IMG/VR virus record: IMGVR_UViG_3300033149_002333
Location: 2,976 to 66,975 of that record
Source: a virus
Direction: 5' to 3' (one strand)
Length of the DNA stretch: 64,000 bases
Under the pieces are notes generated by a model that was not told the origin of the DNA, made no database searches, and saw only the letters and a program-made list of their open reading frames with translations. Positions 5,222 to 45,319 of the stretch are shown here, one piece after another; the first letter of the stretch is position 1, and the number at the start of each line of letters is the position of its first letter. The position numbers and the translations under genes are program-made.

Positions 5222-6982
5222 TTGGCCGAAGAACAAGACAAACACCCGCCCATCGACGCGCAAAAGCTGATCGATGACAAAGTCCGCGAAATAGCCTACC
5301 TGCGGAAGTTGGAGGAAATCTACAACGAAGGCTTGGCTCATAGGCGAGTTATAGCTGCCGATTGGGACGGTTATATTCAATTCCTTCGCGGCAAGCAGTG
5401 GCCTAAACGCAGACCCTCGCATAAAGTCTCCGCGACGATCAACTTGCTAATCGAGAATATCGAGCGCAAGTCGGCTTTGCTAACCGACGCGAAGCCTATT
5501 CCTAAAGTCATTCCGCGCTCTGATCGCTTCCAAGATACCGCCGATGTGCTCAACATTTTGATAAATCGCATTTTCCAAACCAGCGACTTCGGCCAGGCGC
5601 AGGTCGAAATGCTCGAATACGCTCAGCTGTTCGGCACCGGGTTTATAGGGACTGTATTCGACGAATCCGCGGCGAATGGCCTTGGCGACATAACCACCCC
5701 AGCTTTCGACCCGCGCGCGGTTTTGATAGACCCCTTCGTACGCAAAAGCTATCTCCTGCATCAGGGCGAGTTCGTCATTCTCGAAGACATCTGGGCCTTA
5801 GACAAAGCCCGCGATTTATATCCCAAGCGGGCCGACAGATTCAAAGCCGACGAGGTTCTAAGCCGCTACTCAAACTCCAGAACCGACGCACAACACACCT
5901 GGTGGGCACGCATTTTCCACTCGCCCGACCAGGACGTCCGCGAAAGCTACATCCCCCGCGTTTCCGTGCGCGAATATTGGCTGCGCGACTACTCGGGTGA
6001 GTTTCGCAACAACATGCGCAAAACCGTTCTAGTTGGAGACGTCATAGCCGATGATGGCGAGAATCCCTACAACGACGGCGGCTTCCCCATCGAGATGCTG
6101 AGTTGGCATACCGACTTCAACACCGCCTGGGGCTGGGGTGATGTCGAACTGCTTAGATCGCCCCAGGAAGTTTACAATAAAATCCTCGCCTCGATAGTCG
6201 AAAACATCATCCTAATGCAAAACGCCATTTGGATTGGCGACGCCGACGCACTAACCAAAGAAGAATGGCGCAAGCTAACCAACGCCCCGGGCAGCTACGT
6301 TCGCAAACGCCCCGGCCGAGAGCTAAGGCGCGAACCCGGAGTTCCGCTGCCTTCAGACGTTTACAACACCCTGGGCATAGTCGAGGGCACGGGCATCGAA
6401 AAAACCACCGGCATGGTCGACGTAATGCGCGGGGTTAGAACCGGACAAGTAAGCAGCGGAGTCGGGATCGAATCTCTGCAACTCATGGCGCAGGCTTTAA
6501 TTCGACTTCGCGCCCGAGCCATAGAAGCTCTGCACGTGCGCTTGGGCAAAAAACTCGTTTCTAGGATTTTTCAGTTCTACGAGCCTGAAAAAATAGCCGA
6601 AGTTCTGCTAGCTAAGGGCGAAGAAAGCGAAACACTCCAAGCTCTAAACACGGATTTGCTAAAACCTATCAGCCGCCGAGATCGCAACGTATGGAAAGAC
6701 TTCGCCTTCGAGGTAGAACCTGGCAGCGGCCTCGCACTGGCCGAAACCCAAAAACGCATCGAATCTTTCCGCCTGCGGGAAATCGGAGTAATCGACGACC
6801 GCGCCTTGCTGGAAGATTTGAAATATCCGCATCGCGAGAAGGTCCTCAAACGCGTCGAAGCCATGCGCCAAAACGCGGCTAACGAGGAAATCCCACCCGG
6901 CCAGGACGGGGGTTCTCCGCAAGGCAGCCGAGCAACTCAATTCCCCAACCAAGCTGGGGCAAGTCCGAAGGGTAGATTCTGA
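5222..6982 (+). CDS. Portal protein (P22-like)
   Basis: 586 aa; FLRGKQW, TINLL, GTGFI and SSGVGIESLQ segments; position after terL; GGAGG plus TTG start. Confidence 0.88.
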   Translation: MAEEQDKHPPIDAQKLIDDKVREIAYLRKLEEIYNEGLAHRRVIAADWDGYIQFLRGKQWPKRRPSHKVSATINLLIENIERKSALLTDAKPIPKVIPRSDRFQDTADVLNILINRIFQTSDFGQAQVEMLEYAQLFGTGFIGTVFDESAANGLGDITTPAFDPRAVLIDPFVRKSYLLHQGEFVILEDIWALDKARDLYPKRADRFKADEVLSRYSNSRTDAQHTWWARIFHSPDQDVRESYIPRVSVREYWLRDYSGEFRNNMRKTVLVGDVIADDGENPYNDGGFPIEMLSWHTDFNTAWGWGDVELLRSPQEVYNKILASIVENIILMQNAIWIGDADALTKEEWRKLTNAPGSYVRKRPGRELRREPGVPLPSDVYNTLGIVEGTGIEKTTGMVDVMRGVRTGQVSSGVGIESLQLMAQALIRLRARAIEALHVRLGKKLVSRIFQFYEPEKIAEVLLAKGEESETLQALNTDLLKPISRRDRNVWKDFAFEVEPGSGLALAETQKRIESFRLREIGVIDDRALLEDLKYPHREKVLKRVEAMRQNAANEEIPPGQDGGSPQGSRATQFPNQAGASPKGRF

Positions 6983-9434: not shown

Positions 9435-10355
9435 ATGGCACTGACCTACGACGAGATTGATGCTCATGTTCGATCCAAATACATCCCCGTTCTCGTCGAT
9501 CAGTATTTCAAATCCAACCCCCTCTGGACTCAGCTCCAGGCGAAGAGCAAAGTAATCTACGACTCCGGCTCCACCATCAAACAGCCGGTGCTCTTCGGGG
9601 AGCTGAACTCTGGATGGTATTCTGGACTTGATACGTTCGACATTACAACCAAACAAACCGACACCTTGGCTGAGTTCAACTGGGCTCAGTTCTACGTCAA
9701 CATCACCCTCGACGGCGAGACCGAACTCAAAGTCGAAGGTGATGAGAAAATCCTCTCAATCATGGCAACCAAAATGGACAATGCGTCCAAAACCTTCAAC
9801 AAGCAGATGAACCAGGCCTTATATGCCGACCAAGGCGCCAAAGCCATCCGCCCGCTGACCGAGGCCGTCGCGACCTCAGGAACCTACGGTGGCATCAGCA
9901 AGAGCAGCTATAGCTGGTGGCAAGGCAACGTCAACTCCACTGGCGGCGCCCTAACGCTCTCGATGCTACAGAGCATGTATGGTGACTGCTCCGACGGGGC
10001 GATTCAGCCGGATTTGATCGTAACAACGCAAGACATCTACGACAAAATCTGGCAGCGCGTCCAGCCCCAAGATCGAGGCAATAACGAAAACACCCCCGCG
10101 CTTGGGAACGTCGGCTTCTCGGGAATTCGCTTCAACAAAGCTACCATTGTGGTAGATAACTATTGCAACGACGGCTATATCTATTTCCTCAACACCGACT
10201 TCTGGAAGTTGGTCATCCACAAAAAGCGCCCGCCTCTGTGGACTCCGCCGAAGGTTCCGCTGAACCAAGACGCCTTTGTCCGGCAGCTCCTCTGGGCCGG
10301 TTGCTTGCTTTGCCAAGCCCCGCGCTGGCAGGGTTACATCTCGAACGTAAGCTAA
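9435..10355 (+). CDS. Major capsid protein (HK97 fold)
   Basis: 306 aa after scaffold, AGGAGGT RBS, PDLIVTT..GFSGIRF..YIYFLNT pattern. Confidence 0.88.
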   Translation: MALTYDEIDAHVRSKYIPVLVDQYFKSNPLWTQLQAKSKVIYDSGSTIKQPVLFGELNSGWYSGLDTFDITTKQTDTLAEFNWAQFYVNITLDGETELKVEGDEKILSIMATKMDNASKTFNKQMNQALYADQGAKAIRPLTEAVATSGTYGGISKSSYSWWQGNVNSTGGALTLSMLQSMYGDCSDGAIQPDLIVTTQDIYDKIWQRVQPQDRGNNENTPALGNVGFSGIRFNKATIVVDNYCNDGYIYFLNTDFWKLVIHKKRPPLWTPPKVPLNQDAFVRQLLWAGCLLCQAPRWQGYISNVS

Positions 10356-10422: not shown

Positions 10423-11178
10423 ATGGCTATCACCGACAACATCTATCAAGAAGCAATGGTAGGTGACCCTCTAATCAGGCCCGCGCAGGGTATCTACGAG
10501 GAGTCTTCAACTCAGAAAGCCCCTCTCGGAACTCGCCTGGCTTTCTCCGATGGACGCGTTTATCGTTACGCTCTCAACGGATCGACCGCGCTGGCGGCTG
10601 GCAAGCCAGTCAAATCCCTAGCTTCGGGGTCGGATCTGGTCAACTTGCTTGTCCAATCCGCCGCAGCTATCGGGACGAAGACCGTCACCGTCTCCACCGC
10701 CGCAGCCATGACCACCCTCGCCGAGGGTTATCTTTGCATCAACGACAACACCGGCCAGGGCTTGATGTACAAAATCAAGAAATCGGCTGCGAACGCTTCG
10801 ACTTCGACCCACACCGACATCACGCTTTATGATCCGATCTACACCGCGCTGGATACCACGAGCGAGTGTATCGTCGTACCGAGTCCCTACTACGGCGTAA
10901 CGGTTGCGACTGCCGACGGCGAAGAGAACATCATTGGAGTTCCCCCGATCGCAGTCACGGCCAGCTATTATTTCTGGCTACAAACTTGGGGAATCTGCAA
11001 CGTTCTTCGGGCCGACACCGCAGCCGTTGGCAACGATCTCACAACCCAAACCACCACAGCTAACGCTGTAGGCGAACGCACCGCTGGAACCTCCAACACC
11101 GGCTACATCGGCCACGGTTGGGGCTGTGCCGGAGTTGCGACCGAGTATCGTCCAGTTATGCTGCGGATCGCACCGTAA
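10423..11178 (+). CDS. Putative capsid decoration/cement protein
   Basis: Follows MCP; LGTR..DGRVYRY and YYFWLQTWG segments; GGAGG RBS. Confidence 0.7.
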   Translation: MAITDNIYQEAMVGDPLIRPAQGIYEESSTQKAPLGTRLAFSDGRVYRYALNGSTALAAGKPVKSLASGSDLVNLLVQSAAAIGTKTVTVSTAAAMTTLAEGYLCINDNTGQGLMYKIKKSAANASTSTHTDITLYDPIYTALDTTSECIVVPSPYYGVTVATADGEENIIGVPPIAVTASYYFWLQTWGICNVLRADTAAVGNDLTTQTTTANAVGERTAGTSNTGYIGHGWGCAGVATEYRPVMLRIAP

Positions 11179-11192
11179 GGAGGTGATCGCAG

Positions 11193-11441
11193 ATGGCTTT
11201 TACGGAGACTGAAGTTTTCATGGACGCAATTGGCAACCGGACTTTTGGTTGCTATTTGCTGGAGGCAGATGGATCTGATACCACCTTCAAAGCTCCGGTG
11301 GGTCAGATCGATGCTGCTTGGATGCAAACTCGAACCGCCGCTGCCACGGGAAGTTTAAGTTGGAGCGGAAACACGATCACATTCACCAGCGCCTACGATG
11401 ATGGTGACTATTTGTATATATTCTTCGTTGGCACGCCTTAA
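11193..11441 (+). CDS. Small putative virion protein
   Basis: AAGGAGGTGA RBS; 82 aa, beta-rich. Confidence 0.7.
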   Translation: MAFTETEVFMDAIGNRTFGCYLLEADGSDTTFKAPVGQIDAAWMQTRTAAATGSLSWSGNTITFTSAYDDGDYLYIFFVGTP

Positions 11442-11457
11442 GGATTAGCTATCTAAC

Positions 11458-11483
11458 CAAGGTGGGACTTCGGTCCCACCTTG
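11458..11483 (+). terminator. 11-bp stem with cUUCGg tetraloop, no U-tract
   Basis: CAAGGTGGGAC-TTCG-GTCCCACCTTG. Confidence 0.6.
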
Positions 11484-11502
11484 CAGCAAATCGAGGAACA
11501 AT

Positions 11503-13116
11503 ATGTTCGACATAATTCCTTGGATACTGACGGGATATATTTGGCTTTGGTATCCGCTGAATGTAAGCAAGCTGCCCTACGAAACCCCGCGCGAGATGTT
11601 CTTGGCCGGGGCAGGGCTGGTGATGGTTTGGGTTTATATACTCGCTAACGAACCGATGCCGATTTGGATTTTCTACGCTTTGGGCTTAACCGGACTGTGG
11701 ATCATCAACGGAGCAACATCTCAAGTTCCGCGCTTGGGCTTGCGCCTTGCGGTTACGTACAGCTTAATTATGCTATTTGCTTTGTTGCTTAGCCGCGCAG
11801 GAACCGATCTCGGATTGCAACTAATCGCCGTTGGAGGCGCAGTTAACGCCATCTATGCTTTCGCCCAAAATAAACTCAAATGGGACTTTTTGAGCGTTTC
11901 GACCAATCTCGAAACTCACTACCCGATCGGCTTCGTGGGTAACTCGAACATGCTCGGGTGTTTCTTGGTGCCATGCGCGTTCGCTCCGATGGCTCTGGGT
12001 GGGTGGTGGACGCTACTAGCTATTCCAACCTTACTAGGCATTTGGATAACCCAATGTCGCTCTGCCTTCGTCGGCCTCTGGGTGGGCGCGGCGTTTATGC
12101 TCTTGCTTACTCTAGGTGATCCGACTTACATCCCAACTCTCGCGGCAGCAACCTTTTTGGGTTTGGTTCTGCTGCAACGCTTCGCGCCTAACAGTTATAT
12201 ATTCTACTCCGGAACCTTAAAGGAACGATTAAACTACTGGCGAGCAGCTTGGACTCAGATTAAACGAGCCCCACTACTAGGCTGCGGGTTCAACGTTTTC
12301 GCTACGAAAGTTCCATTCGTAAATCGCCACCTAAACTTTCAATCTAAGGGCGAGTTTTTGCATCCGGACAACTATCAAAACCCCTGGCCTCAGCGCTGCC
12401 ATAGCGACTTTATTCAACACGTTCTCGATAACGGCCTCTTGGGAGCTTCGGGAATTTACTTGCTAGCCTTCTTAGCAGTTTGGAACCTCGCTCAAACCCA
12501 ACCCTGGGTAGCTGGGGCCTTGGTTTCGCTGCTCGGCTGCGGCATTTTCTTTCACACCTTCCATATAGCAGTCACGAATTTGCTTTTTTGGATTCTAGTC
12601 GGAATGGGTTTGCCTAACATAGGTTACGCCTACCCAGCCCCGCTTCTCGTAGCAATCTTCACTCTCCTAACCCTCCTAACCCTTAAACTCCTGCCCCGGT
12701 TCCAACTAACCGACTGGGCTTTCTCACGCTTTTTCAAACACCGCACCGAGGATTGCTTAGTTAGAGTTCACAACCTCTCCCCCTATAGCTCCGCCGTCAA
12801 TTGCCACGCTACAGCCTTCTACGCTCAAAAAGGCGACCCCTGGCGAACCTTCCGCCATGCCATGCGCGCAATCGAACACACCGACGGTGAGCAACGCATG
12901 TGGGAGCTCTGGAATAACCTCGGAGTAGCTTGCTTAATGAACCGTGCGATAATCCTGGCCGAACTATGTTTCAGGGAATCCCTAAGCTTTTGGCCTAGTT
13001 ATACAGCAGCTCAACAACAACTAGCTGGCTTAGCAGCTATGCACAAACAGCCACAAGCCCAGGCCCAAACAGCCTCGGCTTCACAGGGAGGCACAACCAA
13101 AAATGACTCACGCTAG
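11503..13116 (+). CDS. O-antigen ligase / O-oligosaccharyltransferase family (Wzy_C) membrane protein with TPR-like C-terminus
   Basis: Many TM segments; GNSNMLG, TQCRSAFVG, RLNYWRAAW..I...PLLGCG and HSDFIQ....NGLLG; WNNLG..A...F..SL. Confidence 0.85.
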   Translation: MFDIIPWILTGYIWLWYPLNVSKLPYETPREMFLAGAGLVMVWVYILANEPMPIWIFYALGLTGLWIINGATSQVPRLGLRLAVTYSLIMLFALLLSRAGTDLGLQLIAVGGAVNAIYAFAQNKLKWDFLSVSTNLETHYPIGFVGNSNMLGCFLVPCAFAPMALGGWWTLLAIPTLLGIWITQCRSAFVGLWVGAAFMLLLTLGDPTYIPTLAAATFLGLVLLQRFAPNSYIFYSGTLKERLNYWRAAWTQIKRAPLLGCGFNVFATKVPFVNRHLNFQSKGEFLHPDNYQNPWPQRCHSDFIQHVLDNGLLGASGIYLLAFLAVWNLAQTQPWVAGALVSLLGCGIFFHTFHIAVTNLLFWILVGMGLPNIGYAYPAPLLVAIFTLLTLLTLKLLPRFQLTDWAFSRFFKHRTEDCLVRVHNLSPYSSAVNCHATAFYAQKGDPWRTFRHAMRAIEHTDGEQRMWELWNNLGVACLMNRAIILAELCFRESLSFWPSYTAAQQQLAGLAAMHKQPQAQAQTASASQGGTTKNDSR

Positions 13117-13486
13117 GGATATAACTATTCACACCGTTTGGAGCTCGGAAGCAGTGACGGGTTCCGCTGGGGTAACCTCGCAGGCTTACGATTTGGGCAA
13201 TGCCGCCGACAACTTCACTCTTTCGCTTCAGGTTGAAGTAGCCAACACCGGGGCCTCGTATAGCTTCGATTACACTCTCTCCAACAATGGCACGGATTTT
13301 CTGCTGCCGACTGGAAGTAGCTACGGAGGTTCTATCGTGGCAGGTTTTACTGGAACCTCTGGGCCGAACTCCAATGGCAAGGACATTTTCGCAATTACGC
13401 CTGCACTGGGTCGTTACATCAAAGTTCATGCCAACGAGGTCGGGGCGTCCCCCGGCTACGTCTCGGCATGGTTGGCACTTCAGTAG
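13103..13486 (+). CDS. Putative virion beta-sandwich protein, paralog of 224..619
   Basis: Shared motifs with 224..619; GGAGG RBS. Confidence 0.7.
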   Translation: MTHARDITIHTVWSSEAVTGSAGVTSQAYDLGNAADNFTLSLQVEVANTGASYSFDYTLSNNGTDFLLPTGSSYGGSIVAGFTGTSGPNSNGKDIFAITPALGRYIKVHANEVGASPGYVSAWLALQ

Positions 13487-13497
13487 GAGATTTGGCG

Positions 13498-15462
13498 ATG
13501 CGGAAAGTTATTGCAGTAGTATTGGCTTGTGTGCTGCTATTTGCTGGGCAGGCGCTTGGCCGGACGGTTTATTTGAGTCTAAGCGACGAAGATAGCCCGG
13601 CTTTTGCGGGGTTGGATCTGACTGGACTCACGGATGACTACGTGCCTTACGTTGGGGCTGATGGGTTGGCTGATAGTCCTATATCCACGGACGGGTCGGA
13701 TGTAGCAATCAACTCGTTGACTGCTAGTCGATTAGTGGCGTCCGACGGCAGCAAGAACCTCACCAGCACTATCACAGAGGCTAACCTTGAAGCCTCTGTG
13801 TCCGATATGGCAAACATCATTCAGGCTGCTGAGATTGATACGTCTGCTAAGTTAGCGGGCATAGTTGGTGATGAAACTGGCAGTGGGGCGCTGGTTTTCG
13901 GAACGTCTCCAACGCTTTCTGATTTGGACTTGAGTGACATCACCGACGGCTACGTCCCCTACGTCACAGCCGGGGGAATGGCTGATAGTCCGATTTATAC
14001 GGATGGGACGAATGTGGGGATTGGGACGACAGGTTTAGGGGGAAAACTGACGATATCGAGTGATGCTTCGTCGCTGAATCAATTCATTAGATTGGAAAAT
14101 ACGGAATCTGGACACGAGAGAAACTGGATGCTAGGGATTTTGAATGCGAGTTCTGGGGCATTTCGCATTTATGATTTGACAGCAGATACCACTAGATTTT
14201 TGATAGACAGCTCTGGCAAAGTCGGCATCGGAACGACGAGTCCAGACGCAAATTTAGAGGTTGAGGAATCGGCAGCAAGTGAAGGACGTACACTGTTAGA
14301 GATAGATGGAGATATAAACAGCGGTGCGGCAGTTACAAATATTTATGGTGTCAAAGTCGTAACCAGTGTGTCTGACTATGCTGGGGGTACTGACGTCACC
14401 AACATGTATGGAGTGTATGTTGATGATTCATCGAGCGGTGCCGGTACTACTCTAGGCAATTATTGGGGCATATATGTCCCTGCGGCTGGTACAAGAGTAG
14501 GGAATGCTTACGGGGCATATTTTGCGGACAATGTCGGCATCAATACTAACACGCCCGCAACCAAGTTAGCAGTCAACGGCCTCACCAGCACCTCCAGCTA
14601 CAATCTCGTCCGCGTAGATACTGCCGACGGAGACTTCTACTACGACTCCTCCAGCGAACGCAACAAAGAAAATATCCTGGAGTATAGCCCGAGCTTAACC
14701 AAGGTGCTAGCCCTCACCCCAGTAGCCTACACTGATAGCACCTCCGGCCAGCAAGAAATCGGCTTAGTAGCTGAAGACCTGAATGAAATCGACCTAAACG
14801 ACCTTGTGATTTACAACTCGGAAGGTGAACCTGACGGCATTAAATACGAACGGTTGAATCTTTTCCTGCTTCAAGCCCTTCGGGAGATGTTGTGGGCTTC
14901 ACTAGATACTACGCGCAAACAAGCCATCAGAAACCAAGTTCGCAAACAATGGCTTCGCCAATGGCGACGAGACAACGCTACCGAAACCGAGATCACTGAA
15001 GCGCAGGCCTACGAGGAAACTGGCGAAACCGAGGAACAAGAAGCATGGGAAGTTCTTCCACGTGAACAATGGGCTGAGGCGATCGAAGACCGAATCGTGG
15101 AAGTCGAAGACCGCGAAAACATCACAGGCTACGAAGTTGAAACAACCATAGCTGAAGATGGGACGGTAACGGAAACACAGAAACCGATCTACGGAAAGAA
15201 ACAGGTCATTCGAGGCAAAAAGCTAAAAGGAGGCTATCGACGCATTAAGGGTCGCAAAGCCGCCGACGGCACTTGGATCGAACGTCCGCGCATTGAAAAG
15301 CGCGTTACCACCCAAGTACCCAAGAAGCGCATAAAACAACGCGTAATTGAGCGCGACGGAAAATTCTACCTCCGCACTCTTCCAACCCTAGAAGAAGCTC
15401 AAGCGGCCCTTCAAGCTGCCGGAGAGGCTTGGAAACCTCAGTGGCTTGCCAACTTGAACTAG
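13498..15462 (+). CDS. Tail-fibre-like protein with signal peptide and peptidase-S74-like chaperone domain
   Basis: MRKVIAVVLACVLLFAGQALG after AGGAG; three [NK]VGI[GN]T repeats; SSERNKENI...IGLVAEDL...IKYERL. Confidence 0.8.
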   Translation: MRKVIAVVLACVLLFAGQALGRTVYLSLSDEDSPAFAGLDLTGLTDDYVPYVGADGLADSPISTDGSDVAINSLTASRLVASDGSKNLTSTITEANLEASVSDMANIIQAAEIDTSAKLAGIVGDETGSGALVFGTSPTLSDLDLSDITDGYVPYVTAGGMADSPIYTDGTNVGIGTTGLGGKLTISSDASSLNQFIRLENTESGHERNWMLGILNASSGAFRIYDLTADTTRFLIDSSGKVGIGTTSPDANLEVEESAASEGRTLLEIDGDINSGAAVTNIYGVKVVTSVSDYAGGTDVTNMYGVYVDDSSSGAGTTLGNYWGIYVPAAGTRVGNAYGAYFADNVGINTNTPATKLAVNGLTSTSSYNLVRVDTADGDFYYDSSSERNKENILEYSPSLTKVLALTPVAYTDSTSGQQEIGLVAEDLNEIDLNDLVIYNSEGEPDGIKYERLNLFLLQALREMLWASLDTTRKQAIRNQVRKQWLRQWRRDNATETEITEAQAYEETGETEEQEAWEVLPREQWAEAIEDRIVEVEDRENITGYEVETTIAEDGTVTETQKPIYGKKQVIRGKKLKGGYRRIKGRKAADGTWIERPRIEKRVTTQVPKKRIKQRVIERDGKFYLRTLPTLEEAQAALQAAGEAWKPQWLANLN

Positions 15463-15477
15463 AAAGGAGAACCAAAG

Positions 15478-15774
15478 ATGTGGACGATAACTTGGCTAGT
15501 CATAACCTACATAGCGGTTCCGTACCCAATTACTCCCCCAGAACCCGATGAGTTCGGAAGACCTATTAGCACTTTCAACGCTGTCCCTGCGGTAGCTTGT
15601 TATAAACGTATTGAAAAGCCGATGGAGAAGACCTTTGAGACTGAGGAAGAAGCCAGTGCTTTTCTGCAACGCTTACAGAAGGCCATTGAAGAACAGTCAA
15701 CTCCCGTAGTAATCCCCGGTGCGAATTATCTTGAGAACCCGGAGAAGAGTTTTAAGTCCTCAGAACGGCATTAA
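15478..15774 (+). CDS. Hypothetical protein
   Basis: AAAGGAG RBS; 98 aa. Confidence 0.65.
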   Translation: MWTITWLVITYIAVPYPITPPEPDEFGRPISTFNAVPAVACYKRIEKPMEKTFETEEEASAFLQRLQKAIEEQSTPVVIPGANYLENPEKSFKSSERH

Positions 15775-15802
15775 ACCACTTACTTCAACCAAGGATACTA
15801 CA

Positions 15803-16102
15803 TTGATCAATACCGAACTAATCGCTGGAGGAGTTGCCATCATTGGAGGAGCGGGCGTAGTTTTACACCGCCTAGGTCTTATCACATTCGGCAAAAACAA
15901 CAAACCCCGCACCGGAATCTGCCCCGACTCTAGCTGCCAAGCTAACGTACAAACCGCAGTTCGTCACATGGGCGAGTTCTCATATATGATCTCCGACGTG
16001 CGCAAGCAACAGGAAAAACTCGAAGACAAAATGGACAAAGTCCTCGAAGACGTTGCTTATATGCGAGGAAAGTTTGATAAGTTATCTGAAAATTCTTCAT
16101 AA
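15803..16102 (+). CDS. Single-TM coiled-coil protein, holin-like candidate
   Basis: LIAGGVAIIGGAGVVL then coiled coil; TTG start after AAGGA inferred. Confidence 0.55.
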   Translation: MINTELIAGGVAIIGGAGVVLHRLGLITFGKNNKPRTGICPDSSCQANVQTAVRHMGEFSYMISDVRKQQEKLEDKMDKVLEDVAYMRGKFDKLSENSS

Positions 16103-16132
16103 GTGTTCACCCAAACCTCGGAGGTGCCTACA

Positions 16133-16543
16133 ATGCGCTGGCTTATTATACTCCTACTAGCAGGATGTGTAACCACAACCCAAGCTATCCGTCAAACCGA
16201 GGAAGAGTTCAAACCTGCAATCTATCAATGTGAAGGCAGATGGTATGATATAGTTGTTCCAACTTGCCTGCCGGATAACTTAGCCAACGGAACCCCGGTT
16301 ATGCCCCCGGATGAGGACCAACTATACCTCATACGCTACACTGTTCCTGGCGACGAACCAGCTCTTATAGTCTTCGATTGGACCCCAGGCGTTTGCGGAC
16401 CCGAATATATAATCGCAGCCACTTGCGGGGGCCAAGCCTGGACGCACGGAGACGGCACTTGGCGGCCAGTTGAACGCGAAGCTATCGGTCCTTATCTGCG
16501 CGACTATCGCGGCGACGAAGCCGAGGGAGACTTTCGATTATGA
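16133..16543 (+). CDS. Lipoprotein
   Basis: MRWLIILLLAGC lipobox after GGAGGT. Confidence 0.75.
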   Translation: MRWLIILLLAGCVTTTQAIRQTEEEFKPAIYQCEGRWYDIVVPTCLPDNLANGTPVMPPDEDQLYLIRYTVPGDEPALIVFDWTPGVCGPEYIIAATCGGQAWTHGDGTWRPVEREAIGPYLRDYRGDEAEGDFRL

Positions 16544-16983
16544 ATCGACTGCTTAGATGGTGGTTGATGTTCTGCCTCATACTCCTAGCTTCTGCTGGGT
16601 TGGCAGTGATGAGATTCGATCAGCAGTTGCTTCGAGCTGACGTAACTAGGTTGAGTTTCTTTATTTATGGCTTGTTCATGTTTGCCAACCTGCGCTTGTA
16701 TTACGGCTTGCGAACTAATCGCTTTGCGAGCGCGGTTTCTTCTGCTTGGCTGGTCGTCAGAATCTCCCCGATTTTTGGGATGATCGGCACGGTCATAGGC
16801 TTCATCATCATGCTCCTGGGAGCGTTCACTGATTTGGACGTATCCAACACCGCCAGCATGAAGCAGGCCCTAACCACTATGGCCATCGGCATGGGTTCGG
16901 CTTTATGGACAACTCTAACTGGCTTAATTTGCAGCGTTGCTCTGCGTATCGAACTTTTCCTACTCGGAGTTGATGATGCGTAA
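16540..16983 (+). CDS. MotA/TolQ/ExbB proton-channel family protein
   Basis: PIFGMIGTVIGFI and GMGSALWTTLTGL signature helices. Confidence 0.88.
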   Translation: MNRLLRWWLMFCLILLASAGLAVMRFDQQLLRADVTRLSFFIYGLFMFANLRLYYGLRTNRFASAVSSAWLVVRISPIFGMIGTVIGFIIMLLGAFTDLDVSNTASMKQALTTMAIGMGSALWTTLTGLICSVALRIELFLLGVDDA

Positions 16984-17599
16984 CAACACCGCGTTTTTGG
17001 ATTTGATGCTTAATTTGTGCTTGGGTATATTCACCCTATTTGCTATAGCGTTTTTCTCGATTCAAGTCGAGCAGAGCAAAGCTGATGTGAAACTCAAAGC
17101 CGAATTTGTCATCGTCGCTACCTGGCCCAAGGAACTGACTAGCGACGTCGATCTCTGGGTGGCTGATCCGGCTGGCAATACGATGTATTATGGCAACAAA
17201 GAATCAGGAATGATGCACCTCGACAGGGACGATCTGGGAAACGTAAACGATGTCATAACCCTCCCTTCCGGGCAGAAAATTGAATGTTCCACAAATCAGG
17301 AAGTAGCTACAATCCGCGGCATAATTCCTGGGGAGTGGATTGTAAACGTTCACCTGTTCCGCTGGGACGGACGAGACCCTATTCCGGTGACGGTGCGCAT
17401 AGACGACCTGAATCCGAAGGTGACTAGAGTGGCCGAAAAGACTGTCAACTTGCTCAACTACGGCCATGAGATAACCATAACTAGAATGTTGGTTAGTGCC
17501 TCCGGGGATGTTTTAAGCCTCGACCCAACCCCCAAAGAACTTTGTAGAATGCAATGGTTAAACCGCAACACTAGCTCAACTGGAGACCACGGAATATGA
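16976..17599 (+). CDS. MotB/ExbD-like single-TM partner with YfaP-like periplasmic domain
   Basis: AFLDLMLN TM segment with Asp; W...DVDLWVADPAG..LDRDD..NQE..PGEWIVNVH. Confidence 0.75.
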   Translation: MRNNTAFLDLMLNLCLGIFTLFAIAFFSIQVEQSKADVKLKAEFVIVATWPKELTSDVDLWVADPAGNTMYYGNKESGMMHLDRDDLGNVNDVITLPSGQKIECSTNQEVATIRGIIPGEWIVNVHLFRWDGRDPIPVTVRIDDLNPKVTRVAEKTVNLLNYGHEITITRMLVSASGDVLSLDPTPKELCRMQWLNRNTSSTGDHGI

Positions 17600-18153
17600 T
17601 CGGCGCCGGACATCTAACCTTAGCTGTCGCGTACACCATGCTAGCTGCAATAACCGGCTGGTTGCTGAGCGGTAGAGCAGTTCGAACCTTTCACCGCGCC
17701 CTGCTTATTCCTTTGCTGGTTTGGTTTGGCTTGGTACTGCTTTACGTACCTAACCACCTTCTAGGCTGGCCAACCAACGAGGAGCCTGTCGAAGAGCTAT
17801 ACATGGTAGGCTATTCCATAGGCAAACTTGCAAGCGCCATCTACATTTGGGGTATTCCACTCCAAGGAGACGAAACAGCTAGTTGGTGGGTTCTAGGTTA
17901 TTCCCCCGAAGACCCACAAGCTCCGCGAGCTTACAAAATCCCCTATTACAGAGCTTTGCACAAAGCCCTCGAACAGTGGCGACTCGGCAAAAGTCAAAAA
18001 GGAATCCCGATTTTGCGGAACGTAGGCAAAAAACAAAAAAGCAAACGCAAACTAGCCGACACCGGTTCTTCGAAATGGAAAAGCGAACAATACGAATTCT
18101 TAGTCCTAAACCCTAGAAACATTCTACCACCTAAACAAATACCTCAACCCTGA
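17596..18153 (+). CDS. Two-TM membrane protein coupled to the MotA/MotB-like pair
   Basis: Two TM helices, LGWP, IYIW and PRAYKIPY; ATGA coupling. Confidence 0.7.
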   Translation: MIGAGHLTLAVAYTMLAAITGWLLSGRAVRTFHRALLIPLLVWFGLVLLYVPNHLLGWPTNEEPVEELYMVGYSIGKLASAIYIWGIPLQGDETASWWVLGYSPEDPQAPRAYKIPYYRALHKALEQWRLGKSQKGIPILRNVGKKQKSKRKLADTGSSKWKSEQYEFLVLNPRNILPPKQIPQP

Positions 18154-18281
18154 CACGGCAGGTTTCTCATGAACCATAAACACTCAACCAAACCACGCGG
18201 CCGCGAATTTATAGTGACTGTCCGACTAGAGACACTCATTAGCGCACTGCGATGGATAATGAGCAAGTTCAGGAGGACTAA

Positions 18282-18482
18282 ATGAAAGCAACAATTATTG
18301 CTAAACTTATCGAACTCTTGCTTGGAATGCTCAGCCCCGAGCTGCTGAAGCGAGCTGTCGATATGATCCTCGACATCTTCGAGGATATGATAGCGGAGAC
18401 GGAGAATCAACTCGACGACAAAATCATCCTGCCAATTCTCGGAATGATCCGCGAAACCTTCAACATTCCGGACGAGGACTAG
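18282..18482 (+). CDS. Small hypothetical protein
   Basis: AGGAGG RBS; amphipathic; TENQLDDK motif. Confidence 0.65.
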   Translation: MKATIIAKLIELLLGMLSPELLKRAVDMILDIFEDMIAETENQLDDKIILPILGMIRETFNIPDED

Positions 18483-18504
18483 ACCCTAAGCGGAGAAACC
18501 TGCC

Positions 18505-19260
18505 GTGCCAAGGCATTTAACAACTTCGATAGACGATACGATAACTGCAACGCATACCTATGAAGGTGTGTTGATTGCGGTGAACCAGGCTCAGGTTAGC
18601 GGAGGGATTGTCGACGGGGTTGTGGTTGGAGGCACTACTCCGGCTGCTGGATACTTCACCAACTTGGCCGGCGTGACGGTCGGCACTAGCGACCAAACCG
18701 TTACGCTTCAATACGGCAACGCAACCCTAGATGGTTTTCTCCACGTAGGCACAACCATCAACGTTCCGGTTTCGACTGGAACGACGATTTCTACCGGCGG
18801 AGTTACGGCTTCGTATAACGACCTGACTGTCCTGGGTTGGGCTGACGTTTCGGGTAGTTTGTATGCTTCCACCAGCCCGACTTCCGCCTCCGGAGTAGGC
18901 AACCGCGATTTCAACGACGGGCGTTATTATCAAAAGTGGGAATTCGTTCATGAAACTGCTGGTGGAGTATCAGCTTATCAACCAGTTAAGCTCAATAGTC
19001 AGGGGGAGTTAGATTCGAGCTTTGTCGATTCGGCGATTGAGGCGAATGCCCACGTCGATGCGGCCTATCAGCATACTACCTCCACCGGCGCGGATCATTC
19101 GTATATTGACCAAGATTTAACCGCCGGTTCAACCGTCAGTTTCGGGGCGGTTTACTTAGACAACACCAATCCGGCTGCTGCTAACTACGCAACCTCTAGG
19201 GCTTACGTGGATTCCTTCAACGCACATGCTTATTTTATAGCTAACGGATTGCCAGTATAG
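18505..19260 (+). CDS. Fibre protein sharing its N-terminus with 23486..25138
   Basis: MPRHLTTSIDDTITATHTY; ATSRAYVD fibre motif. Confidence 0.72.
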   Translation: MPRHLTTSIDDTITATHTYEGVLIAVNQAQVSGGIVDGVVVGGTTPAAGYFTNLAGVTVGTSDQTVTLQYGNATLDGFLHVGTTINVPVSTGTTISTGGVTASYNDLTVLGWADVSGSLYASTSPTSASGVGNRDFNDGRYYQKWEFVHETAGGVSAYQPVKLNSQGELDSSFVDSAIEANAHVDAAYQHTTSTGADHSYIDQDLTAGSTVSFGAVYLDNTNPAAANYATSRAYVDSFNAHAYFIANGLPV

Positions 19261-19269
19261 GACACTTCA

Positions 19270-19602
19270 ATGGGACACGAGTACGGACGTTTAGGCGCGG
19301 TTAGACCGGATGCGGGAGATACTGAATACGAACTCTACCAAGTCCCCGCGGGCACGTCTGCGGTGGTTAATCTTTCAATATGCAACGTGGCTGATTATAG
19401 CATCTCGATCAGGGTTGCCCGTACGACCGACAGCCATAGCGCCTACACTTGGGATTGGCTTTTGTATGATACTGAGGTTTCAGCTAACGATGGATATCAG
19501 CCATTTACTGGCCTGTCAATGGGACCATCTGAAACCCTCAGAGTAAGCTGCAACGTAGCCGACGTGTGCGTCTTTATAGCCGATGGGCTGGAGATTAGCT
19601 AG
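19270..19602 (+). CDS. Putative virion structural protein
   Basis: LYQVPAG..LSICN..LLYD pattern within the fibre block. Confidence 0.65.
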   Translation: MGHEYGRLGAVRPDAGDTEYELYQVPAGTSAVVNLSICNVADYSISIRVARTTDSHSAYTWDWLLYDTEVSANDGYQPFTGLSMGPSETLRVSCNVADVCVFIADGLEIS

Positions 19603-20045
19603 TGGGTACATACCGACTAGGAGGTTGGTTTGCTATGACTATTGATGGGAGGGCAATAAACTCCTCCACTGTTGGAGTTACAACCCCCGCCGAGGGCAGA
19701 TTTACCACCCTGCGCGGGGCTTATGTTAGTACGTCGGTGCACTCTGCCGATTACACAATTACTGCATACGACCTGGGCGGATTGATGGTTATGAACGCCC
19801 CCAGCATTGCGACGTTCACACTGCCAGCCGTTGGTGCTAGCGAAGACGGCGCGCATGTTATGATAGCGAACCAGTCTGATAACCAGTTGGGTATTCAAGC
19901 CCAAGCCGGGGATTATATAATGGACTCCTCTGCCGGGGGGTTTTGCTACAACGCCGGGACGAGTTCGTTCATCGAGCTTGTTTATCACGACGCTTCAAGC
20001 GTTTGGCTAATGCGCGGCGGTGCTGGGACTTGGACGACTGGATAA
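19602..20045 (+). CDS. Fibre-associated protein
   Basis: VGVTTPAEGRFT; TFTLP domain resembling the C-terminus of 20551..23466. Confidence 0.65.
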   Translation: MGTYRLGGWFAMTIDGRAINSSTVGVTTPAEGRFTTLRGAYVSTSVHSADYTITAYDLGGLMVMNAPSIATFTLPAVGASEDGAHVMIANQSDNQLGIQAQAGDYIMDSSAGGFCYNAGTSSFIELVYHDASSVWLMRGGAGTWTTG

Positions 20046-20582
20046 ATGGGACAGCGAAGGCTCAAAAACGAGGATCATGACAGGTTAGTAAATCGTGATT
20101 CCAAAGGCCAGCATTCGGCTAAAGCAATACAGTTCAACCCCACCGGGGGAGTGTTTAGTACGGATGTTCAGGCAGCAATTCAGGAGCTTGATAGAAAAAA
20201 GTTAGATACCAATTTCGGCAATTTAGCCAGCGTTGCTTGGGCACTGGCCGCGTTGGGGATTACGGTATGGGAGTCTGAGAGCGATACGATAAGTGGGGGA
20301 GCGACTACACTCAACAGCACCGCTTGGAATGTTACTTACACAATCGACACCGAAGGCGGGGCTGGTTCGGATGATCTGGCTACGATAAACGGCGGAGTGG
20401 AGGGGCAGAAAGTTTATATTCAAGCAGCTAACGACGCCAGAACGGTCGTAGTCAAAGCCGGAACTGGCAATATATATATGCGAACGGATTTTTCCTTGGA
20501 TAATACGAAGGATAAGCTAGTTTTGCTAAACATCGGAGGTTCCGAGTGGCATGAGGTTTCGAGGGTTAGTAACGGGAGTTAG
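20046..20582 (+). CDS. Putative virion structural protein
   Basis: STDVQAAIQEL motif; DDLATINGG beta domain. Confidence 0.65.
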   Translation: MGQRRLKNEDHDRLVNRDSKGQHSAKAIQFNPTGGVFSTDVQAAIQELDRKKLDTNFGNLASVAWALAALGITVWESESDTISGGATTLNSTAWNVTYTIDTEGGAGSDDLATINGGVEGQKVYIQAANDARTVVVKAGTGNIYMRTDFSLDNTKDKLVLLNIGGSEWHEVSRVSNGS

Positions 20583-23466
20583 TATAATAGGCTTGTTCGT
20601 GCTGCTGGTTTGGGTTGGCTGGACCATCGGCGCTGCGGGCGATCCAGCTATTGAAGGGGTTAGTGAAGTCGAAGATTTTGCCACTTCGGGGGCTGCTGGA
20701 ACAGCGCCACTTAGCGATGGGGCTAGTGGGTTGAGTATGACGGATGTGCTTACGGAGGATGAGCTAAACTCCGAGGCCGAACTCGAAGCCCAACTAGCCG
20801 ATGTGTCGGACGTCTATACGGACAACGACGTCGACTTCATAACTGCCGACGATATGGCAGATGCCGATCACGGAGATGTCAGTTGGTCTAGTGGTGTTGC
20901 ATCAGTGGAGGACCTAACCATTTCCGGAGAAACTCAGGGTGACGTTCTCTACTTTAATGGATCGAACTGGGTGCGCCTCGGTATAGGTGCCGCTGGACAG
21001 GTCCTTGAGGTCAACGCAGGTGGAACGGCCCCGGAGTGGGATACGGACGATTCGGCAGCAGGTGGCGGAAACGATGTCTACATAGAAGAGGGAGACGCTG
21101 CTAGGGTGGACTCGACCAGTGCGGATCTTTATTTGGACTTCGATGACAGCGACTTTGATGTTGGCGTTGCGGGTAATGAAGCTAATATTACGATAAACGT
21201 AGGTCCGAACCAAATGTCCGATGCCGACCACGGAGACGTGGCCTGGTCCGGCGGAGTGGCTTCCGTACAAGCAGTGCAAAACAATTCCGTTGATCTAGGC
21301 ACCGACACTGTTGGGAATTACGTAGCCACTGTTGCCGACGGCACGGGGATAGACGGTACAGCTTCCGGGGAAGGTTCAACCTACACGCCTTCTTTCGATT
21401 CGACAGAACTAGGCAACTTGGTCTGGGGAGACAACTCCCAAGCAACAATCAGCTGGCTTTTCTCGCTAACTGGAGGAAACGACCCAAGTATTTTATTCTC
21501 TGATAACAAAATAACGTACTATTCGACGTTCGAACTCAACAGTACTGCACCTAGCATAACTCTTTACGAAAACGACACGAACGATTACTGGTATCGCAGT
21601 ACAGTAAACAGCGGACTCCTTGTTATAGGTTACGACGAAGACCGCGATGGAGCGTTTACTCCAGTAACCAATGTTCTAACCTTCTATCCTGCTGATATTA
21701 CTACTACAGACGACCGCATAGTAATAGGCAGCGGGTCCTCGAAGTCTAATACAGACTTTTCTTTGGCTTTTGATACTGATACTGAAGATTATTTCTTCGG
21801 TTATGACGATTCCCAAGATAAGTTCATATTCGGTTCGGCTGGAGCTGCATACAACATTGGTGATTACGATAGGCGCTATCTTACTGCCCAAATTTCAACT
21901 AATGACGACGGTTACATTTTGGGAAATGCTAACGTCTTCGTTCCCCAAATGTTTGGCCCAATAGATCCAACGGACGACGCGGCAAACACGGACGATACTG
22001 CTATACAGGCCGCGATCGACGCAGCTGAGGCTTCGATCATTAACTACGATGGGTCTCCTGCAGTAGTGTTTTTACCTCCAGGTTATTATAATATAGATGC
22101 CGGGCTTACCATTTCTAAGGGTATACATCTCATTGGGTCTGGGAAATCCTCTAGTGTAATAAAGTCTGATATAACCGCCGATCATGTAATTACGGTGGAT
22201 AATGGTGCCGCCGGTTCGGTGGTGGGTTACGGCAAAGTTGCCAACTTGTCTATTGCGACAACGGTTGAGAACGACGGAAAGGCTTTGTTGTATATGGTTG
22301 AGCCCTTTCACTATACGATTGAGAACGTGTTCCTTGGAAACGGGTCTTACGGAATCTACTTAGACGATCCGGACTGGGTAACGGTAAATAAAGCATTTAT
22401 CTATTACGATGGTGCTGTACATGACAACGCAGACCCCGCGAACGCAGGGATTTACATAACTGCGAACGACAGTGCAGATCACCCGAATGTACGGATACAA
22501 GACTCCGAGATAAATGGAGGTAGTGGGGCGTCTCCTGAAAGAGTTGTTAACTACTGTATCAGAATAGGTGGTGCGGATGGCATATGGATAAGCAACACCC
22601 ACATGTATTTTGCCAAATTGGCCAACATATATGCAAGGGCTGATGGAGTTGATTATTGGCTAAATGGAATCCTCGTTGACAACTCGTGGATAGAAAAGGC
22701 TGGGCAGTATAACTTTCTTCTCAGTGACAGTACTGCTACTGTTCGTGCTACCTATTACAGCATTTCCAACAGTGTTATGGACGGTGGTGAGGTAACGCAG
22801 TTTGGAGTGTATGTGGATCATTCCAGCCTGGAGACGTTCGTCATTTCAGACAACGTAATAAAGTCCCATGATTACGATGGTATTCAGATAGCGGATACGT
22901 CGGCTAGCGCAGAGGTAGTCATTATCGGAAACGTCATAGCGGGACACTCCGAGGCTGGAGAAGACGGGATCGACATAGGTGAAGCGTCCATTGACGAAAT
23001 CGTAATCTCCGACAACGTGTTCAGTGACAACGATGAAAACATCGAATGGCCGTCTGTGGGGCAAGAGGCGGATATTGTAGTTGCTAACAACGTCAACGAG
23101 GATAGTCACGGACTAACTAGGAAAATCATTCCAATCACCTCTGGTTCTTCCAGAAACGTCGCAGCGTACGAAAGCGGGGCGTTGTTTTCTGTCAATTCGA
23201 GTTATGCGGGGTTGGTAACTCTAACCCTTCCGGCAGATCCGACTGGGTTGTATTATACCTTCTGCAACGCAAATTCTTCGTACTCACTTCGCATAGACGG
23301 CAACGGTGCTGATACAATAGCTGGTGTACTAGCTGGAAGCGCCAGCACTACCGCAGCCGACATAGACATAGACACTGCTGGAGCGTGCGTTACGCTGGTC
23401 GGAGTCAACTCGGCAGGATGGGGAATAGTAGCAGCAACAGGCGACTCTGGGGATTATACATTTTAG
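20551..23466 (+). CDS. Tailspike-like beta-helix (pectate-lyase-like) protein with N-terminal hydrophobic helix
   Basis: DDTAIQAAIDAA..VVFLPPGYY..LIGSG and ISDNV repeats; very acidic; N-terminal IIGLFVLLVWVGW. Confidence 0.82.
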   Translation: MRFRGLVTGVSIIGLFVLLVWVGWTIGAAGDPAIEGVSEVEDFATSGAAGTAPLSDGASGLSMTDVLTEDELNSEAELEAQLADVSDVYTDNDVDFITADDMADADHGDVSWSSGVASVEDLTISGETQGDVLYFNGSNWVRLGIGAAGQVLEVNAGGTAPEWDTDDSAAGGGNDVYIEEGDAARVDSTSADLYLDFDDSDFDVGVAGNEANITINVGPNQMSDADHGDVAWSGGVASVQAVQNNSVDLGTDTVGNYVATVADGTGIDGTASGEGSTYTPSFDSTELGNLVWGDNSQATISWLFSLTGGNDPSILFSDNKITYYSTFELNSTAPSITLYENDTNDYWYRSTVNSGLLVIGYDEDRDGAFTPVTNVLTFYPADITTTDDRIVIGSGSSKSNTDFSLAFDTDTEDYFFGYDDSQDKFIFGSAGAAYNIGDYDRRYLTAQISTNDDGYILGNANVFVPQMFGPIDPTDDAANTDDTAIQAAIDAAEASIINYDGSPAVVFLPPGYYNIDAGLTISKGIHLIGSGKSSSVIKSDITADHVITVDNGAAGSVVGYGKVANLSIATTVENDGKALLYMVEPFHYTIENVFLGNGSYGIYLDDPDWVTVNKAFIYYDGAVHDNADPANAGIYITANDSADHPNVRIQDSEINGGSGASPERVVNYCIRIGGADGIWISNTHMYFAKLANIYARADGVDYWLNGILVDNSWIEKAGQYNFLLSDSTATVRATYYSISNSVMDGGEVTQFGVYVDHSSLETFVISDNVIKSHDYDGIQIADTSASAEVVIIGNVIAGHSEAGEDGIDIGEASIDEIVISDNVFSDNDENIEWPSVGQEADIVVANNVNEDSHGLTRKIIPITSGSSRNVAAYESGALFSVNSSYAGLVTLTLPADPTGLYYTFCNANSSYSLRIDGNGADTIAGVLAGSASTTAADIDIDTAGACVTLVGVNSAGWGIVAATGDSGDYTF

Positions 23467-23485
23467 TTAAGTTCGGGAGCTTACA

Positions 23486-26083: not shown

Positions 26084-26163
26084 TGAGTTTCACCGACGGC
26101 TGGATGATAGCCTTCGGGTTGGCTGTTTATTTATTCTTGGAGATTCTAACAAGGGATTATTAA
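26083..26163 (+). CDS. 26-aa hydrophobic peptide (below the ORF-track cutoff)
   Basis: MSFTDGWMIAFGLAVYLFLEILTRDY; TGATG and TAAATG coupling at both ends. Confidence 0.5.
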   Translation: MSFTDGWMIAFGLAVYLFLEILTRDY

Positions 26164-36722: not shown

Positions 36723-36919
36723 AAACCCCTCCTTTGTCTTAGTTTGAGTTCAAGTTCTCGCATTCTACGTTTGTAGGCGTCTTTCTGTGCTTGATGCCGC
36801 CTTTTCATAGCTTCGATGCAGGAAGTTCGCGCGTGGCAACATATCTGATTTGGCTGACCGAGAAAATCCTCGCCGCAGAATATGCACGTGCGAATCCATA
36901 GAAAATCGGTTTTGCTCAT
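36719..36919 (-). CDS. Small Cys-rich protein
   Basis: CIFC...CC....C. Confidence 0.6.
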   Translation of the reverse strand: MSKTDFLWIRTCIFCGEDFLGQPNQICCHARTSCIEAMKRRHQAQKDAYKRRMRELELKLRQRRGL

Positions 36920-41297: not shown

Positions 41298-41321
41298 TTC
41301 CTGACCTCCTTGTTCGTATGG

Positions 41322-41510: not shown

Positions 41511-41520
41511 GTCCACCTTA

Positions 41521-42020: not shown

Positions 42021-42058
42021 TTGTTATTCTCCTCCTTTCTATGTTCATCGTTCCACCC

Positions 42059-42226: not shown

Positions 42227-42242
42227 CTCGATGTTCCGCCTT

Positions 42243-43007: not shown

Positions 43008-43010
43008 TGA

Positions 43011-45305: not shown

Positions 45306-45319
45306 TTTGGGTTGGCTCC

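Follow-up and report, generated by a model that had tools for sequence, protein, structure and literature searches.

A phage-encoded Wzy_C membrane protein with a tetratricopeptide arm behind the head genes of an integrase-free phage: a candidate enzyme of host-envelope remodelling

What is a gene resembling bacterial O-antigen ligases doing directly behind the capsid genes of a virus? The question is raised by a 64,000-nucleotide (nt) stretch of the virus record IMGVR_UViG_3300033149_002333, hereafter the window, which covers bases 2976-66975 of a record totalling 66,975 bases and rated complete by CheckV. We call the gene the Wzy_C-TPR gene, after its Wzy_C domain and its tail of tetratricopeptide repeats (TPRs). 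To our knowledge, phage-encoded surface-glycan enzymes are known almost solely as lysogenic-conversion genes of temperate phages. A preliminary description, made from the sequence alone, had read this gene as an O-antigen ligase-family gene expressed late together with the head genes and had assigned it a role in morphogenesis or at the lysis stage. The explanation that we prefer, with a confidence somewhat short of even, is that it encodes a late-made, periplasm-facing transferase of the WaaL/PglL type that would move host lipid-linked glycans to an acceptor in the envelope, its purpose being remodelling of the host envelope and not assembly.

Fold and family of the Wzy_C-TPR protein

The gene and the segments of its 537-amino-acid (aa) product, P0001, lie as follows in the window.

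11503..13116, plus strand: Wzy_C-TPR gene, 537 aa (open reading frame; Pfam Wzy_C; structure model)
11503..12621, plus strand: WaaL-like core of 12 transmembrane helices, residues 1-373 (VIA-align, Foldseek)
12016..12453, plus strand: Pfam Wzy_C region, residues 172-317, holding the loop between helices 9 and 10 with R242, G260, G262 and H300
12637..12696, plus strand: 13th transmembrane helix, residues 379-398, with a stalk to residue 413 (hydropathy; model)
12748..13086, plus strand: three TPRs, forming six helices, residues 416-528 (profile matches; model)

Pfam places Wzy_C (PF04932) on residues 172-317 (E=2.7e-10; 40.7 bits against a cut-off of 31.7), and the same domain is matched by all 44 members of a family alignment whose sequences are 19-37% identical to the query P0001. 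Invariant in this alignment are R242, G260, G262, H300 and G311, and conserved in at least 90% of the sequences are N147, L165, Q305, G314, W363, D461, G462, W467, L494 and P498. An AlphaFold2 model built on the 44 sequences (mean predicted local distance difference test, pLDDT, 92.6; predicted template modelling score, pTM, 0.90) runs from nine helices through a long loop at residues 227-301, which includes two short helices, to three further helices, a helix at 379-413 and six helices at 416-528. Hydropathy peaks at 2.19 over residues 379-397. The G+C content of the gene is 51.2%, compared with 51.1% for the window.

When the model was compared with the full structure library by VIA-align, residues 1-373 gave WaaL (7tpj_B) at Z 20.7, with a root-mean-square deviation of 4.4 over 330 residues and a sequence identity of only 13%; the runners-up were the peptidoglycan polymerases RodA (Z 9.6) and FtsW (Z 9.2). 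Foldseek returned WaaL (7tpg_B) at E=1.3e-5. Many TPR domains aligned to model residues 396-518 at Z 8-9. Against PDB sequences, positions 418-520 of the family profile gave E=1e-34 with consensus TPR proteins and E=1e-24 with the TPR domain of OGT (O-GlcNAc transferase). TPR_1 and TPR_2 of Pfam were matched by 12 and 11 of the 44 members, respectively. The TPR-like tail is thus a true TPR domain, and the assignment of the gene to the Wzy_C family with such a tail is borne out by Pfam, profile and model, with one correction: the start given earlier, 11458, is the first base of a hairpin, and the open reading frame begins at 11503. In the membrane part, the family profile matched a chain named 'Oligosaccharyltransferase' (9rmk_A, positions 35-408) at E=5.3e-10 and WaaL 7tpg_B at E=1.3e-5; a literature search by entry code found no paper describing 9rmk. 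Against PDB the single P0001 sequence gave only weak TPR matches, an 11-sequence profile restricted to the membrane part found no solved relative, and NCBIfam has no family for P0001. Judged by its fold, by the invariance of the Arg and His and by the conservation of TPR residues, the protein is apparently a catalytically intact enzyme with a partner-binding arm.

This fold could also belong to a true O-antigen/core ligase of the WaaL type, which would join a lipid-linked polysaccharide to lipid A-core and so alter the lipopolysaccharide, maybe the receptor of the phage's own tailspike. WaaL is by far the top solved fold in the comparisons above and the Arg and His are invariant, the phage encodes a tailspike-like protein (20551-23466) that contains a pectate-lyase domain, and its spanin-like genes, one for a lipoprotein with the motif LLLAGC and one for a one-helix coiled-coil protein, fit a host with an outer membrane. 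WaaL proper, however, consists of 12 helices and lacks a C-terminal periplasmic domain, the oligosaccharyltransferase chain is a better match to the family profile than WaaL is, and the conserved TPR arm has no clear use with a lipid acceptor. We therefore consider a ligase proper unlikely.

The orientation of the arm can be approached by counting helices. The 2022 structure paper on WaaL is said to describe 12 helices with the N- and C-terminus both cytoplasmic, and residues 1-373 of the phage model align to the entire WaaL chain. In the phage protein, the loop that carries R242 and H300 must be periplasmic because lipid-linked glycans are used there, and since four helices follow this loop the tail should emerge on the periplasmic side. 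By helix parity with WaaL, we infer that the TPR arm seen in the model is periplasmic.

HMMER, run exhaustively over 1.84 billion representative proteins, found 173 relatives with E<=1e-3, of which 43 reach E<=1e-30. Most of the relatives are 500-570 aa long and align over their full length, the tail included. PHROGs holds no member of this family. In a word-indexed search of 5.8 billion proteins the single sequence found only itself, and the 44-sequence profile found only distant bacterial Wzy_C or TPR proteins. The ten clusters that we looked up have 1-4 members apiece, all metagenomic, and one alone bears a name, 'O-antigen ligase'. A search for loci in viral contigs returned nothing with the single protein and did yield loci with an 8-sequence alignment. 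All contexts recovered are phage-like: ten loci in which the gene occupies the same slot behind the head genes, and two loci in temperate phages (L011 and L014). In a FastTree tree of 82 family members (rows P0002-P0081 of at least 450 aa together with the locus proteins, shorter rows and exact duplicates being excluded), nine head-slot proteins group in one 28-row clade with support 97, and the L011 and L014 proteins fall in a distinct 18-row clade with support 95.

A scan of 185,579 species genomes gave one match, L015, a contig of 66,668 bases in a bin labelled Candidatus Paceibacterota. In length and in match it equals the phage contig behind L012 and L021, which is complete and has terminal repeats. 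We therefore handled it as a phage contig within the bin and not as a host assignment, its presence there being either a binning artefact or a hint of the host. A cyanobacterial host for the window phage was considered and rejected, as the HIP1 motif occurs 0 times in the window.

Position of the gene behind the head genes

The immediate surroundings of the gene are as follows.

9435..10355, plus strand: major capsid protein gene, SU10 type (Pfam SU10_MCP, E=8.7e-10; PHROG 9953, major head protein, E=1.8e-49)
10423..11178, plus strand: 251-aa gene, syntenic with the capsid gene (44-53% identity across all the close relatives)
11193..11441, plus strand: 82-aa gene, immediately 5' of the hairpin and the Wzy_C-TPR gene
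11458..11483, plus strand: hairpin, perfect stem of 11 bp closed by a UUCG loop, not followed by a U-tract (sequence; folding)
11493..11497, plus strand: Shine-Dalgarno-like site GAGGA, 5 nt 5' of the ATG (read from the sequence)
13103..13486, plus strand: jelly-roll protein gene, 127 aa, overlapping the Wzy_C-TPR gene by 14 nt

The capsid gene opens the abundant head-protein segment that lies 5' of the Wzy_C-TPR gene. Capsid and decoration genes had both been proposed here; Pfam and PHROG support the former, and the 251-aa and 82-aa proteins have no match in either database, a decoration role being possible for the 251-aa protein. The hairpin begins 17 bases past the stop codon of the 82-aa gene and reads CAAGGTGGGAC-TTCG-GTCCCACCTTG, with CAGCAAAT following 3' of the stem, i.e. 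no U-tract. A 75-nt region containing it folds at -27.8 kcal/mol (z=-4.17), a value that 0 of 200 shuffles equalled, and it is the sole intergenic one among the perfect hairpins of at least 9 bp in the window, the other three lying within open reading frames. It is conserved in 0 of 8 relatives. From its sequence and from its position where the head-protein segment gives way to the genes 3' of it, the hairpin probably acts as a 3' stabiliser or an attenuator.

A promoter scan found no sigma-70-like site from 10834 to 15960. Among eight relatives, the 82-aa gene and the Wzy_C-TPR homologue are separated by 4, 10, 11, 11 and 15 nt in five, overlap by 11 nt in a sixth, and stand 44 and 757 nt apart in the other two, so that six of the eight have a gap of at most 15 nt or an overlap. 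Because the gene shares the strand of the head genes, has no promoter-like site of its own and is tightly spaced in relatives, its membership of a late transcription unit with the head genes is supported at the level of sequence. Several elements of the preliminary description thus stand, namely the cUUCGg hairpin without a U-tract, the lack of an evident separate promoter, the overlap with the next reading frame and, on the grounds just given, the predicted late co-expression. The sequence AACCTT ends just before the Wzy_C-TPR start codon in L004, L012, L016, L017 and L019, none of which has a Shine-Dalgarno-like site; this difference from GAGGA may reflect hosts with differing translation-initiation signals.

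A search with the capsid protein led to nine viral loci, six of them close (L002-L007, 64-71% identity) and three distant (L008-L010, 25-36%). In L004, L005 and L006 a homologue of 30-31% identity sits between the 82-aa and 127-aa genes, whereas in L002 and L003 the 82-aa gene or genes adjoin the 127-aa gene directly, with no Wzy_C-TPR gene in the slot. The contig of L007 stops before the slot, and L020, which has an identical capsid protein, carries the gene. Among the close relatives chosen by capsid, the gene is therefore present in four of six (L004, L005, L006, and L007 by way of L020) and missing in two of six. The capsid tree leaves one loss event and two loss events in L002 and L003 unseparated. 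In the distant L009 and L010 no homologue was found in the 5-6 kb 3' of the capsid gene, and the contig of L008 stops too early. The 8-sequence alignment search added L012 from viral contigs, with an identical slot and a 10-nt gap, and L016-L020 from metagenomes; tblastn places an 82-aa homologue immediately 5' of the Wzy_C-TPR gene in all of these and in L004, L005 and L006. In L002, across 10988-13272, where the Wzy_C-TPR gene is missing, the 251-aa gene is present in two copies and the 82-aa gene in three.

The gene also diverges much faster than its neighbours. Within the same phages the Wzy_C-TPR proteins share 30-35% identity and the capsid proteins 64-71%, and the median end branch is 0.91 changes per site in the family FastTree tree against 0.27 in the capsid tree, a rough comparison because the methods differ. 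Relative to three full-length relatives, the conserved head module stops at the Wzy_C-TPR gene, and the 12 kb at 13468-25138, which encode a fibre-like protein, membrane proteins and the tailspike, have almost no counterpart. Its patchy presence, its place at the border of a hypervariable host-recognition region and a divergence several times that of the capsid protein all suit a fast-evolving accessory gene of host interaction, not a morphogenesis factor. The morphogenesis role proposed earlier is accordingly given up: two of six close relatives do without the gene, and its product, apparently an enzyme, is a 13-helix integral membrane protein whose evolution far outpaces that of the head proteins. 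Sporadic presence among relatives, which the preliminary description had itself set against its reading, was seen in part, the gene being missing from the slot in L002 and L003.

The capsid genes of two relatives are themselves interrupted, by two insertions in L005 (2939-5234) and one in L006 (8520-10435), each of about 0.7-1 kb. Every one of these insertions holds an open reading frame for a LAGLIDADG-type homing endonuclease (E=1.8e-28 in L006; weak matches in L005), and they are probably group I introns or inteins.

Wider gene layout and a second phage context

Packaging, head and tail genes occupy the plus strand from 1 to 34.8 kb; replication genes and a large cassette for sugar metabolism are on the minus strand. 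The principal further landmarks are these.

1259-3196, plus strand: terminase
5222-6982, plus strand: portal, P22/SU10-type
20551-23466, plus strand: tailspike, pectate-lyase-like
25178-27979, plus strand: SU10-type adaptors

A tail-fibre-like gene lies 3' of the Wzy_C-TPR gene. No tyrosine integrase was found in any of four genomes (the window record and three full-length relatives), no resolvase-type recombinase was found in the window record, and no endolysin was recognised within the window. On the minus strand, a 776-aa open reading frame at 36916-39246 encodes a family A DNA polymerase with an N-terminal domain of the uracil-DNA-glycosylase superfamily (E=5.7e-21).

The 127-aa protein whose gene overlaps the Wzy_C-TPR gene, a putative virion protein in the preliminary description, was modelled with a pLDDT of 85.3. 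Its closest folds are XepA (6i56_D, Z 11.4) and YomS (Z 9.9), which are Bacillus prophage lysis-cassette proteins, XepA coming from the PBSX cassette; phage cement proteins follow at Z ~8. It has a paralogue in the window, in that the plus-strand open reading frames 224-619 and 13103-13486 both encode jelly-roll proteins of ~130 aa, the first sitting before the terminase genes, and more copies of this protein are present in relatives.

About 2.6 kb 3' of the Wzy_C-TPR gene, a plus-strand cluster of envelope proteins in the late operon occupies 15719-18153. One of its products, of 127 aa, combines a single membrane helix with a coiled coil; another is a lipoprotein of 146 aa whose lipobox reads LLLAGC and which weakly matches an Rz-like spanin; a third, of 147 aa, is MotA/ExbB/TolQ-like (Pfam E=1.7e-8). 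The last two proteins, of 220 and 185 aa, have one and two membrane helices, respectively.

A second context was found in L011 and L014, which are complete viral records of another phage type, with no matches to the structural proteins of the window. Here the order is a giant polyvalent virion protein, the homologue, one to three small membrane or secreted proteins and an endolysin (Hydrolase_2 or Amidase_2), and an integrase and a repressor lie near the homologue. The giant proteins directly 5' of the homologue have 2,425 aa (L011, 37-7311) and 2,484 aa (L014, 27-7478) and contain helicase C-terminal, phosphoribosyltransferase and ART-PolyVal domains. We considered whether the secreted 134-aa protein 3' of the homologue in L011 is related to the 127-aa protein of the window and rejected this at an hhalign probability of 0.2.

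The location just 5' of an endolysin in this temperate clade lends circumstantial support to the lysis-stage half of the earlier proposal. In a lysis-linked or non-enzymatic reading, the protein would disturb the lipid-carrier cycle or the envelope and so help with the timing or completion of lysis, or would act as a membrane scaffold by way of its TPR arm. Besides the one to three small genes that separate homologue and endolysin in L011 and L014, this reading can draw on the membrane-protein cluster described above and on the XepA-like fold of the overlapping 3' protein. However, other jelly-roll proteins match at Z 9-10, and XepA is not set clearly apart from them; active-site-like residues are strictly conserved, which favours catalysis; and the gene is missing in two of the six close relatives. 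A ligase reaction, moreover, frees the lipid carrier and does not trap it. We judge a lysis-linked or scaffold role very unlikely.

The same temperate loci bear on another reading, in which the protein is a Wzy-type polymerase that changes a linkage in the host O-antigen or capsule and so converts the serotype, as in D3, phi297 and VarioGold. In L011 and L014 the homologue lies between virion genes and lysis, integrase and repressor genes, a typical site for a conversion gene, and phage Wzy_C proteins with a conversion role have been published (PMC9658991; PMC4815439). On the other side, tblastn gave no match at E<=1e-3 in 50,697 GenBank phage records, which should include such phages. An invariant His at the start of helix 10 is a trait of ligases and oligosaccharyltransferases and is not known as one of Wzy. 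The window phage and its three full-length relatives are integrase-free, and with no resolvase in the window they offer no setting for lysogenic conversion; no inhibitor or co-polymerase partner was found. A polymerase is, on this balance, quite unlikely.

The minus-strand cassette spans ~13 kb (39312-52157) and appears dedicated to unusual sugars, perhaps destined for an envelope glycan or for DNA, in a phage without an integrase; it is largely missing from the three full-length relatives. Its genes encode two Asn-synthase-like amidotransferases, a DegT aminotransferase, a radical SAM/SPASM enzyme, a GT4 glycosyltransferase, a WbuX-like N-acetyl-sugar amidotransferase, three hexapeptide acetyltransferases and a GFO/IDH/MocA oxidoreductase. 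A membrane protein of 437 aa with no assigned function and a pair of small proteins that bear signal peptides are encoded there too. As a general source of the sugar donor, the phage's own cassette was rejected, given that its DegT marker occurs in 0 of 5 related records searched, four of which carry the Wzy_C-TPR gene. It could contribute a donor in the window phage specifically.

A large sugar-synthesis cassette in the window phage, and a gene placed directly 3' of the capsid genes and 5' of a tail-fibre-like gene, might suggest that the enzyme glycosylates the phage's own particle, as the morphogenesis idea implies. The active face of this enzyme family is periplasmic, however, and tailed-phage particles assemble in the cytoplasm, which makes such a role improbable. 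The neighbouring proteins also lack signal peptides, the DegT marker is missing from related phages that have the gene, and two of six close relatives dispense with the gene itself. Particle glycosylation is in our view extremely unlikely.

Proposed action of the enzyme and its relation to known systems

Under the explanation that we prefer, the Wzy_C-TPR gene would be transcribed together with the late head genes, and the hairpin would set it apart from the abundant capsid messages and probably cut its expression relative to them; low expression would suit a polytopic membrane protein required in small amounts. The product, as a WaaL/PglL-type enzyme, would act on sugar chains borne by undecaprenyl pyrophosphate at the outer face of the cytoplasmic membrane. 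Its 13th helix would bring the chain back to the periplasm and put the three-TPR arm beside the active face, where the arm most likely docks an acceptor or partner protein. Late in infection, host lipid-linked glycans would then be moved onto an envelope acceptor, a protein being favoured over lipid A-core, and the altered surface would mask receptors, exclude other phages, or spare progeny from sticking to debris.

By analogy, the acceptor is probably a protein, which is favoured because the architecture is like that of PglL, PglS and TfpW and because the profile match to the oligosaccharyltransferase chain 9rmk_A is the better one. The suggestion in the preliminary description that the TPR tail may select protein acceptors is, by the same analogy, a reasonable reading. 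A more specific version holds that these are phage-specific protein O-oligosaccharyltransferases, made late from the head operon and with a periplasmic TPR arm. They would attach host lipid-linked glycans to proteins on the host surface, such as pilins, the S-layer or outer-membrane receptors, or else to phage proteins that are exported; this we consider doubtful.

Several points weigh against envelope remodelling by a protein-directed transferase. The top solved fold match is a lipid A-core ligase and not a protein transferase, and the PglL-type Pfam signatures PglL_A and Wzy_C_2 are matched by 0 of 44 members (E<=0.01). No acceptor gene is evident near the Wzy_C-TPR gene and no adjacent exported acceptor was recognised, the 127-aa protein encoded 3' of it having no signal peptide. 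The periplasmic placement of the TPRs comes from counting helices against WaaL, and a Lys/Arg-rich stretch just after helix 13 would, by the positive-inside rule, point to the cytoplasm. Late expression allows little time for a surface change before lysis. Finally, if terminators of the host have no U-tract, the hairpin could act as one, and the Wzy_C-TPR gene would then require a promoter invisible to a sigma-70-like scan.

If the enzyme is active as we propose, lytic phages too would alter the glycoconjugates on the surface of the cells that they infect, and this would bear on receptor availability, phage-phage competition and the loss of progeny on debris. Were the protein-glycosylating reading true, a virulent phage would here be masking receptors or excluding superinfection in a new way. 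These small and diverse relatives of PglL and WaaL may also interest glyco-engineering, as their donor specificity may be relaxed.

Among characterised systems, WaaL of Cupriavidus metallidurans (7TPG/7TPJ) shares with the phage protein the 12-helix core, the long loop after helix 9 and Pfam Wzy_C. Each protein has conserved Arg and His in that loop; these residues are catalytic in WaaL, PglL and PglS, and R242 and H300 are their putative counterparts. The phage protein differs in its added 13th helix and three-repeat TPR domain, and in being phage-encoded within a putative late structural operon. The protein O-oligosaccharyltransferases PglL (Neisseria), PglS (Acinetobacter) and TfpO/PilO (Pseudomonas), and WsfB (Paenibacillus), share a Wzy_C core, an extra helix and a C-terminal domain, periplasmic in these and predicted to be so in the phage protein. 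A C-terminal TPR motif is noted for PglL and WsfB in section 3.2.3 of PMC2943079, and section 4 of PMC12800693 describes a PglS model with 13 helices, a C-terminal periplasmic domain and the catalytic residue His324. The phage family, in contrast, lacks PglL_A and Wzy_C_2 in all 44 members and has no pilin or other acceptor gene nearby. TfpW, the pilin arabinosyltransferase of Pseudomonas aeruginosa, is presented in a preprint (bioRxiv 10.1101/2020.04.19.049825) as polytopic with a C-terminal periplasmic TPR domain supported by reporter fusions; the likeness is one of design only, since the preprint's protein belongs to an ArnT/Emb-like family with a DDX motif and not to Wzy_C.

Phage-encoded Wzy_C membrane proteins are likewise known from D3 (Wzy-beta), phi297 and VarioGold (VG_p25). 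As PMC9658991 describes it in the passage on this gene, VG_p25 adjoins lysis and integrase genes, which recalls the homologues in L011 and L014; the conversion gene of D3 is placed in a similar way. The published proteins have ~410 aa and ~10 helices with no TPR, and they come from temperate phages and stand in moron orientation, whereas no integrase was found in the window phage. The literature searched holds no account of a TPR-tailed Wzy_C protein from a phage.

An identical domain order is found in uncharacterised bacterial 'O-antigen ligase family proteins' with C-terminal TPRs, whose predicted structures agree with the phage model at a template modelling (TM) score of ~0.8 over residues 1-525. 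These are common in Bacteroidota, Myxococcota, Elusimicrobiota and Verrucomicrobiota, and no tested function for them was found in the literature searched. They differ from the phage protein in being cellular, often longer and richer in TPRs, and their kinship in sequence is remote. Set beside all of these systems, what is new here is a TPR-armed subfamily of the WaaL/PglL type in what appears to be the late structural operon of integrase-free phages, the kind of enzyme itself being known.

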